Assembly (NCBI RefSeq): GCF_030384885.1
Contig: NZ_CP128613.1
Direction: 5' to 3' (one strand)
DNA: 64,000 nt
From: Escherichia coli
Lineage (GTDB): Bacteria; Pseudomonadota; Gammaproteobacteria; Enterobacterales; Enterobacteriaceae
The position numbers and the translations under genes were made by a program. Of the stretch, positions 56,671 through 59,357 are shown in pieces; position 1 is the first letter of the stretch, and every line of letters begins with the position of its first letter. A model generated the notes under the pieces. It saw nothing but the letters and a program-made list of their open reading frames with translations, made no database searches and was not told the DNA's origin.

Positions 56671-56693
56671 CCTACACCTGTAAGAAAATCCGC
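56671..56693 (+). promoter_or_regulatory. Conserved motif upstream of ydeP (candidate EvgA box)
   Basis: CCTACACCTGTAAGAAAATCCGC, with a near-identical copy upstream of safA (59335-59357). ydeP and safA-ydeO are established EvgA-activated promoters and the motif contains TACA/TGTA half-sites. Confidence 0.5.
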
Positions 56694-56934
56694 GCACAAT
56701 TGAAGTCAGAGTCTTATTTTATATATTGAAAAGTATGTTAACTTAAAGACTATGAGAGATGATGCTTAACTTATCGCATTTATACTATTCTGTTATGTGA
56801 CGATAATGAGTTAAAAATAGAATGAGAGTAGCCCCCTACTCTCATATATCCAAATGGCCGATAAACCCATTATATATACTGCGCATCATCGCTATTACAA
56901 ATCCTAATAATTCATTTCCACACAGGATAAGCTG

Positions 56935-59214
56935 ATGAAGAAAAAAATTGAATCCTACCAGGGAGCTGCCGGTGGTTGGGGGGCTGTCAAATCTGTAGCG
57001 AATGCAGTCCGTAAGCAGATGGATATACGCCAGGAAGTGATTGCCATGTTTGACATGAATAAGCCAGAAGGCTTTGACTGTCCAGGATGTGCATGGCCAG
57101 ATCCTAAGCACAGCGCGTCATTCGACATTTGTGAAAACGGCGCAAAAGCAATCGCCTGGGAAGTCACCGATAAGCAGGTGAATGCCTCTTTTTTCGCTGA
57201 GAATACGGTTCAATCATTACTTACCTGGGGAGATCACGAACTCGAGGCTGCGGGGCGTCTCACTCAACCTTTGAAATATGATGCCGTCAGCGACTGTTAC
57301 CAGCCATTAAGCTGGCAACAAGCTTTCGACGAAATTGGCGCACGTCTTCAAAGTTATAGTGATCCAAATCAGGTTGAATTCTATACTTCGGGCCGCACTT
57401 CCAATGAAGCTGCCTTTCTTTATCAGCTTTTTGCCCGTGAATACGGTACCAATAACTTTCCCGACTGCTCAAACATGTGCCATGAACCGACCAGCGTGGG
57501 TTTGGCAGCGAGTATCGGCGTGGGTAAAGGGACCGTGTTACTGGAAGACTTTGAGAAATGCGATTTAGTAATTTGCATTGGGCATAACCCTGGTACAAAC
57601 CACCCTCGCATGCTGACTTCGTTGCGCGCTTTAGTGAAACGGGGAGCGAAAATGATTGCCATCAATCCTCTGCAGGAGCGTGGCCTGGAGCGATTTACCG
57701 CACCACAGAACCCGTTTGAAATGCTGACGAACTCCGAGACTCAATTGGCTAGTGCTTACTATAATGTGCGCATTGGTGGCGATATGGCGTTGCTAAAGGG
57801 GATGATGCGCCTGTTAATTGAGCGCGATGATGCTGCAAGTGCTGCGGGTCGGCCCTCATTGCTGGATGACGAATTCATTCAAACGCATACCGTCGGCTTT
57901 GACGAGCTACGCCGTGACGTTCTCAATTCCGAGTGGAAAGATATCGAACGTATTTCTGGACTAAGTCAGACACAAATCGCCGAACTTGCTGATGCATATG
58001 CCGCTGCCGAACGAACCATTATCTGTTACGGAATGGGGATCACTCAGCACGAACATGGTACCCAGAACGTACAGCAACTTGTCAATCTGCTGTTGATGAA
58101 AGGTAACATTGGCAAGCCTGGTGCGGGTATCTGCCCACTACGTGGTCACTCTAATGTACAGGGCGACCGAACCGTCGGTATCACCGAGAAACCGTCTGCC
58201 GAGTTTCTGGCTCGCCTGGGTGAGCGCTATGGCTTCACCCCACCTCATGCACCTGGACATGCTGCAATCGCCAGCATGCAAGCAATATGTACGGGGCAAG
58301 CTCGAGCATTGATCTGCATGGGGGGCAACTTTGCACTGGCAATGCCAGATCGGGAAGCGAGCGCTGTACCGTTAACGCAATTAGATCTGGCGGTACACGT
58401 TGCCACAAAGCTTAACCGCTCTCATCTGCTGACCGCACGGCATAGCTATATTCTGCCGGTTCTGGGACGTAGCGAGATTGACATGCAAAAAAGCGGTGCG
58501 CAGGCGGTAACCGTTGAGGATTCAATGTCAATGATTCATGCCTCGCGTGGCGTGTTAAAACCCGCAGGTGTCATGCTGAAATCAGAGTGTGCTGTGGTCG
58601 CGGGAATCGCGCAGGCAGCGCTCCCTCAGAGCGTGGTGGCCTGGGAGCATCTGGTGGAAGATTATGATCGCATTCGCAATGACATTGAAGCTGTGCTGCC
58701 AGAGTTCGCCGACTATAACCAGCGCATCCGCCATCCTGGTGGTTTTCACCTGATAAACGCAGCTGCTGAAAGGCGCTGGCTGACGTCGTCAGGTAAGGCT
58801 AATTTCATTACCAGCAAAGGGCTGTTAGAAGATCCCTCTTCGGCGTTTAACAGTAAGCTGGTCATGGCGACAGTACGCAGTCACGATCAGTACAACACGA
58901 CGATTTATGGTATGGATGATCGCTATCGAGGGGTATTCGGTCAACGAGATGTGGTCTTTATGAGTGCTAAACAAGCTAAAATTTGCCGTGTAAAAAACGG
59001 CGAAAGAGTTAATCTTATTGCGCTTACGCCAGATGGTAAGCGCAGCTCACGCCGCATGGATAGATTAAAAGTGGTCATTTACCCTATGGCTGACCGCTCA
59101 CTGGTGACCTATTTTCCAGAATCGAATCACATGCTAACACTTGATAACCACGATCCATTAAGTGGCATTCCTGGCTATAAAAGTATTCCGGTTGAATTAG
59201 AACCATCAAATTAA
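56935..59214 (+). CDS. ydeP: Molybdopterin oxidoreductase (formate-dehydrogenase-like), acid-resistance protein
   Basis: 759-aa ORF with an N-terminal Cys cluster ([11 protein letters not shown]...C) and molybdopterin-binding regions; length matches K-12 YdeP. Confidence 0.9.
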
Positions 59215-59334
59215 TTCGCCTCCTCATTTCTTCTGCTGTCATCCGCACAGCAGAAGAATTCCTCATTGACCATTGTCGCGCAATTTACTCACATGTGCTA
59301 AATTAAACTGCTCGCTATAAGATATATACCTCTG

Positions 59335-59357
59335 CCTACAGCTGTAAGAAACTCCGC
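59335..59357 (+). promoter_or_regulatory. Conserved motif upstream of safA-ydeO (candidate EvgA box)
   Basis: CCTACAGCTGTAAGAAACTCCGC, paralogous to 56671-56693. Confidence 0.5.

Follow-up and report, generated by a model that had tools for sequence, protein, structure and literature searches.

The intergenic regions upstream of ydeP and of safA-ydeO in Escherichia coli each carry a 23-bp motif, and the two motifs are nearly identical. This raises the question of whether they are the sites at which the response regulator EvgA activates these genes. The window analyzed here is a 64,000-nucleotide stretch of E. coli DNA, and the gene order in the region studied is ydeQ, ydeP, safA, ydeO. Over the 4.2 kb around the motifs, the sequence matches E. 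coli 2013C-4282 with 100% identity, and the genes annotated in that strain are ydeQ, ydeP, safA, ydeO, ydeN and ydeM. This identity bears out the names ydeP, safA and ydeO, which an earlier reading of the letters (the sequence-only reading) had given to the genes. By match to the 2013C-4282 annotation, and all on the plus strand, ydeP (56935-59214) encodes a putative oxidoreductase associated with acid resistance, safA (59462-59659) encodes the connector from EvgS/EvgA to PhoQ/PhoP, and ydeO (59734-60495) encodes an AraC-type acid-response regulator. Both motifs are in intergenic DNA, one between ydeQ and ydeP, immediately in front of ydeP, and the other between ydeP and safA, immediately in front of safA-ydeO. 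A search of positions 56000-61000 against Rfam returned no RNA family at E-values up to 1. Elsewhere in the window, a filamentous prophage is integrated in tandem at dif.

Direct comparison places the 23-mers at 56671-56693 (CCTACACCTGTAAGAAAATCCGC; ydeP) and 59335-59357 (CCTACAGCTGTAAGAAACTCCGC; safA), both on the plus strand and exactly where the sequence-only reading had put them. They are identical at 21 of 23 positions, one more than the 20 that had been counted earlier, with mismatches at motif positions 7 and 18, and they have the exact 10-mer CTGTAAGAAA in common. There are three isolated pairs of 23-mers with at most two mismatches in the 64 kb, of which the ydeP/safA pair is one; a tandem duplication of 8.6 kb and some tandem arrays are left out of this count. 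A repeat search of the window with seeds of 8 and 10 did not list the ydeP/safA pair despite the shared 10-mer, and here the direct comparison is decisive.

The 23-mers do not coincide with the repeat that they contain. At each site we find an 18-bp imperfect inverted repeat on the plus strand: ATCCTACAccTGTAAGAA at 56669-56686 in the ydeP promoter, which consists of the arms ATCCTACA and TGTAAGAA around a central cc, and TGCCTACAgcTGTAAGAA at 59333-59350 in the safA-ydeO promoter, with the arms TGCCTACA and TGTAAGAA around gc. Relative to the 23-mer, the repeat starts 2 bp further left and ends 7 bp before the right end, such that each 23-mer is made up of 16 bp of the repeat followed by a 7-bp extension (AATCCGC at ydeP, ACTCCGC at safA). 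Each repeat has a single mismatch to TTCYTACANNTGTARGAA (TTCYTACA-NN-TGTARGAA), the EvgA-box consensus reportedly described by Masuda and Church (2003). With up to one mismatch allowed, the 64 kb contain no other match, and 100 shuffles of the sequence gave none. The left arms depart from the ideal, with AT (ydeP) or TG (safA) in place of TT and with C for T at the fourth position; because of these imperfections, the arms are self-complementary at just 6 of 8 positions. From the end of the repeat to the ATG there are 248 bp at ydeP and 111 bp at safA.

An 18-bp inverted-repeat EvgA box was reportedly described for the E. coli EvgA regulon by Masuda and Church in 2003 and by Itou et al. in 2009. 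The pattern, the genes (ydeP and b1500/safA-ydeO) and the species are the same as here, and nothing essential differs. Searching K-12 with the pattern, we find four matches in the 22 kb around evgAS versus 0.31 expected, and each of the four precedes an EvgA-regulated operon in intergenic DNA: one in the divergent emrK/evgA region, one at frc and two at yfdX. One further K-12 match lies upstream of yegR, and the K-12 ydeP and safA promoters also match. The sequence-only reading had proposed that the motifs are EvgA boxes, and the recurrence of the inverted repeat inside the 23-mers at emrK/evgA, frc, yfdX and yegR of K-12 supports that proposal. The pattern does not account for all reported EvgA targets, since the DNA in front of gadE has no match even when 3 mismatches are allowed.

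Previous experimental work points the same way. EvgA activates ydeP and ydeO (PMC11210196), and a passage of PMC9496106, citing Itou 2009, states that EvgA binds the safA-ydeO promoter directly; these sources support the earlier claim that both transcription units are under EvgA control. A passage of PMC3720670 that cites Masuda and Church 2003 states that EvgA binds inverted repeats in front of yfdX and yfdWUVE, and the intergenic region between evgAS and emrKY is bound as well (PMC5573083). In the words of one statement in PMC4283999, all known directly EvgA-regulated genes have an EvgA binding site.

Conservation across lineages delimits the same repeat. In most E. coli genomes the locus is just 90-95% identical to this strain. 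A search for YdeO among GTDB species representatives found three loci, all E. coli-type, two of them in records labeled as MAG or 'uncultured', and it yielded an additional, more divergent E. coli-type lineage (L008). Because the YdeO carriers found are all E. coli-type, the comparison is confined to lineages within the species, namely K-12, the divergent L008 and a third lineage (L007). Immediately before the box, both promoters vary among the three, and conservation runs from the box through the core promoter; the boxes themselves are the best-conserved stretch across lineages. The ydeP box reads AGCCTACACCTGTAAGAA in K-12 and ATCCTACGCCTGTAAGAA in L008, and the version in this strain, which begins ATCC versus AGCC in K-12, is one base nearer to the consensus. 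At safA, K-12 has the same box as this strain, and L008 has CGCCTACAGTTGTAAGAA.

The resemblance between the two promoters extends well beyond the box, and only on one side of it. The best ungapped segment aligns 56671-56770 with 59335-59434, in the two intergenic regions, at 66 of 100 positions, and its score of 32 compares with 10.2 +/- 1.2 and a maximum of 15 in 300 dinucleotide shuffles. The sequence-only reading had described about 45 bp of similar flanking DNA around the motifs. This holds downstream, where the 62 bp past the box agree at 38 positions (binomial p ~1.6e-8) and the ungapped similarity covers about 80-100 bp, and it fails upstream, where only 8 of the 40 bp before the box are identical, which is background. 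Given a similarity that is ungapped, one-sided and continues well past the box, the sequences indicate that paralogy takes in the whole of the ydeP and safA promoters, about 80-100 bp that start with the box and include the -10. The paralogous core-promoter segments lie on the plus strand at 56687-56770 (ydeP) and 59351-59434 (safA) in one ungapped register with an offset of 2664, and the ydeP segment is highly conserved relative to K-12 and L008. The 23-mers are thus alike outside the box because the adjacent promoters are paralogous, and their similarity is wider than the protein-binding site. The final 7 bp of the 23-mers are common to ydeP and safA only; emrK, yegR, frc and yfdX are unrelated there.

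To place the boxes relative to transcription, we relied on the ydeP leader used in PMC11210196, which starts at -178 from the ATG in K-12. In the alignment this position maps, after a 5-bp indel, to A56752 of the window, the putative ydeP start. The corresponding candidate -10 of PydeP is TAACTT at 56739-56744 on the plus strand (TAATTT in K-12), and by the ungapped register with ydeP, that of PsafA would be TATATT at 59403-59408, also on the plus strand and invariant in all four lineages. The predicted safA start is at about 59413-59416, which would give a leader of 46-49 nt. We infer that the box is centered at about -74.5 in both promoters and that the -10 occupies +53 to +58 after the box. 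A consensus scan prefers another ydeP promoter, TTGAAG-16-TATATT at 56700-56727, for which the box center would be at about -56; this alternative has no counterpart at safA.

Given how much the two promoters share, their similarity might be the mere relic of a local promoter duplication, 2.66 kb apart, with no binding function. About 100 bp are similar in a single ungapped register, as common descent would give, and some of the shared bases, for example AATCCGC/ACTCCGC and TGAAG, are absent from the other EvgA sites. However, the inverted repeat recurs at at least four unlinked EvgA-regulated promoters that share little else, and among lineages it is this repeat that is best conserved, with diverged DNA immediately before it. 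We therefore consider a functionless relic very unlikely. Duplication probably explains the flanks and not the box, and duplication and function are compatible with each other. A chance resemblance of two AT-rich intergenic regions has a negligible probability: the AT-richness of both regions speaks for it and nothing further, whereas the box pattern appeared in 0 of 100 shuffles at up to one mismatch, the ungapped score of 32 exceeds the shuffle maximum of 15, and isolated 23-mer pairs of such quality number three in the 64 kb.

A site for some other regulator, such as RcsB (alone or with GadE), NarL/NarP or YdeO/PhoP, is extremely improbable, even though several observations might suggest one. 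RcsB has been reported to be necessary at some acid-resistance promoters, and the RcsAB box consists of the same hexamers as the EvgA box. However, in the RcsAB box these hexamers are adjacent and in the opposite order, as they are in the site of BvgA, whereas here they are arranged as TTCCTA-6 bp-TAAGAA. The geometry of the box also resembles that of NarL/NarP sites, which are 7-2-7 inverted heptamer pairs bound by a helix-turn-helix dimer of the FixJ/NarL type. The EvgA box is like them in being an inverted repeat centered on 2 bp, but its heptamer is TCYTACA, unlike TACYYMT of NarL, and the sequences present here, TACACCT and TACAGCT, do not match the latter. The promoters with the motif are, moreover, exactly the EvgA regulon. 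Other points in favor of a different regulator are that the optimal site of BvgA, TAAGAAATTTCCTA (PMC7250471), is built from TTCCTA and TAAGAA as well, and that safA expression is lowered by PhoP (bioRxiv 10.64898/2026.05.06.723403). We also compared TAAGAAA plus (A/C)TCCGC by eye with the primary site of Pfha (PMC7250471) and with the RcsAB box, and rejected an RcsB- or BvgA-type reading of these bases; the spacing differs by one, and the match in the second half is poor.

From the regulon-wide matches and from conservation that starts exactly at the repeat, we conclude that the repeats are very probably the published EvgA boxes, through which the ydeP and safA-ydeO promoters would be activated; this high confidence includes the mechanism proposed below and the paralogy of the promoters. 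It is established for this system that mild acid activates the EvgS kinase and that EvgS in turn phosphorylates EvgA (PMC11210196). Phosphorylated EvgA, a response regulator of the NarL/FixJ type, would then occupy the repeat as a dimer, with one monomer on each TTCYTACA arm as the dyad symmetry suggests, and the bound dimer would activate a sigma-70 promoter with a weak -35 about 40 bp downstream. One such promoter would drive ydeP and the other safA-ydeO, whose expression is expected to start the EvgA > YdeO > GadE cascade and to provide the link to PhoQ/PhoP. The EvgA boxes at ydeP and safA-ydeO are already described, and what we report is textbook regulation correctly read and no discovery. 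Our understanding of EvgA control of ydeP and safA-ydeO is unchanged, and the locus is an example of a known regulator site being recognizable in raw sequence. The gain is descriptive: the limits of the box versus the flank that is specific to ydeP and safA, the paralogy of the whole promoters, the constant spacing between box and core promoter, and a possible second element.

This possible second element emerged from an alignment of six K-12 EvgA-box promoters (ydeP, safA, emrK, yegR, frc and the proximal yfdX site) by the box alone. C at +9, A at +10, T at +26 and C at +27 are kept in strict register in all six. The full sequence TCYKATT occupies +26 to +32 in five of them, and emrK has TCCTCTG at this place. 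In the window, the element is TCTTATT at 56712-56718 for ydeP, where it is conserved in all lineages, and TCCTATT at 59376-59382 for safA, in the same fixed register and likewise on the plus strand. None of 2000 circular-shift controls reached the observed in-register conservation, and 2-3 of 2000 did when each paralogous group was reduced to one representative. Measured from the putative start, TCYKATT is located at about -40 to -34, and its ATT is probably the beginning of the -35 hexamer. One candidate explanation was a secondary EvgA half-site at +25 to +32. We did not adopt it: with a half-site weight matrix built from 14 box arms, the scores at this place are about 0 bits in ydeP, safA and yegR, and frc and yfdX score about -10 bits. 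We read the pattern as a constant box-to-promoter spacing, perhaps with an extra contact, rather than as an established second site.

BvgA of Bordetella, with sites at Pfha and Pptx, is the closest characterized homolog of EvgA and offers a point of comparison for this arrangement. At Pfha, the optimal primary site is the sequence given above, and BvgA dimers are bound in arrays with a 22-bp period, the last dimer abutting the -35 (PMC7250471). The likeness concerns the hexamers recognized, since the EvgA box contains both TTCCTA and TAAGAA, and the presence of a high-affinity dyad at some distance in front of a promoter whose -35 is weak, as we propose for the EvgA box. It also concerns position: where BvgA arrays abut the -35, the EvgA-box promoters have a conserved element at the matching place, +26 to +32. 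The two differ in that the BvgA site is formed by adjacent inverted heptads, TAAGAAA TTTCCTA, whereas in the EvgA box the order of the hexamers is reversed and 6 bp separate them, which means that the geometry of the dimer must differ from that of BvgA. A BvgA-type primary site of two adjacent inverted heptads was not found at the ydeP and safA boxes. With respect to further dimers spaced by 22 bp on one helical face, the conserved blocks fall at +9/+10 and at +26 to +32; the half-site scores of these blocks, near 0 bits and between 1st and 36th in rank out of 150, give no evidence for such dimers. The fixed-register element could mark a promoter-proximal contact by extra EvgA or by RNA polymerase, as at BvgA promoters. 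If real, the second element would be relevant to the contact between EvgA and RNA polymerase and to the way in which a young regulon, restricted to one species, came together.

On this last point, we suggest, tentatively and with considerable doubt, that the regulon promoters share a fixed design beyond the 18-bp box and that the regulon grew partly by the copying of promoter cassettes. Paralogy of this kind among all EvgA promoters was considered and rejected; most of the short blocks that they share are AT-rich background, with about 41 expected in shuffles. Local alignments outside the box across all EvgA promoters are significant for three pairs only: ydeP with safA, ydeP with yegR, and emrK with the yegS side of the yegR box. 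The sequences of ydeP and yegR agree at 17 of 18 positions around the -10 and the start, and emrK is identical to the yegS side at 22 of 27.

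Among the features surrounding the ydeP and safA promoters, we find a perfect 10-bp stem-loop (CTTCTGCTGT catccgc ACAGCAGAAG; 59230-59256) that begins 16 bp past the ydeP stop codon and has ydeP on one side and the EvgA box of safA on the other. The stem-loop lacks a U-tract, is kept in K-12, and may terminate transcription weakly or influence RNA stability. In the literature, ydeP-safA-ydeO is written as one transcript (PMC11052181), and the stem-loop is relevant to the question of whether such a transcript ever forms. The long ydeP leader contains a second perfect 10-bp hairpin (ATGAGAGTAG-CCCC-CTACTCTCAT; 56822-56845), which is followed by a T-run on the minus strand and has a terminator-like score. 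Its K-12 counterpart is weaker, and an Rfam scan of 56000-61000 returned no match for this hairpin.

From 56560 to 59470, this strain carries a minority haplotype of the ydeP-safA region. Identity to it is at least 95% in only ~100 of 5,387 E. coli records and falls between 90 and 95% in 5,278. In the divergent E. coli-type lineage L008, the start region of safA and the ~35 bp immediately preceding its start codon have diverged (4700-4731 of that locus), while the promoter upstream is conserved. SafA may have a different start in this lineage, or it may have been lost.

At three K-12 loci with EvgA-box promoters (L002, L003, and L004), the intergenic regions of the EvgA regulon have further blocks in common. 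The ydeP and yegR promoters have ATTTAAACACTA(T)GAGAG in common around the -10 element and the start, with a 5-bp shift in register (z = 4.5). The sequence from +1 to +26 after the emrK box agrees with the yegS-facing side of the box at yegR at 20 of 26 positions (22 of 27 when extended to 27 bp), and CTCTCTGATT occurs at +23 to +32 both at frc and at the proximal yfdX site.

Elsewhere in the window, the stretch 26109-43290 holds two tandem copies of an 8,575-bp element. The copies (26109-34683 and 34684-43258) are identical at 8573 of 8575 positions and carry filamentous-phage genes, namely a Zot-domain protein, a secretin, an attachment protein, and replication protein II/X. Hybrid dif sites (GGTGCGCATAATGTcaacgcg...) are present at 26113 and 34688. 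The dif site at 43263-43290, adjoining hipA, is intact (28/28 match). The element is integrated at the chromosomal dif, and the otherwise near-identical record NZ_CP027579.1 is without the tandem insert. The pair looks like an Xer-dependent integrated inovirus in a tandem array. A 60-bp tandem array of ~10 copies (77% matches) lies at 45115-45727 within a large minus-strand gene annotated as hypothetical; identity to NZ_CP027579.1 is only ~96% over this stretch, versus 99.9% for its flanks.
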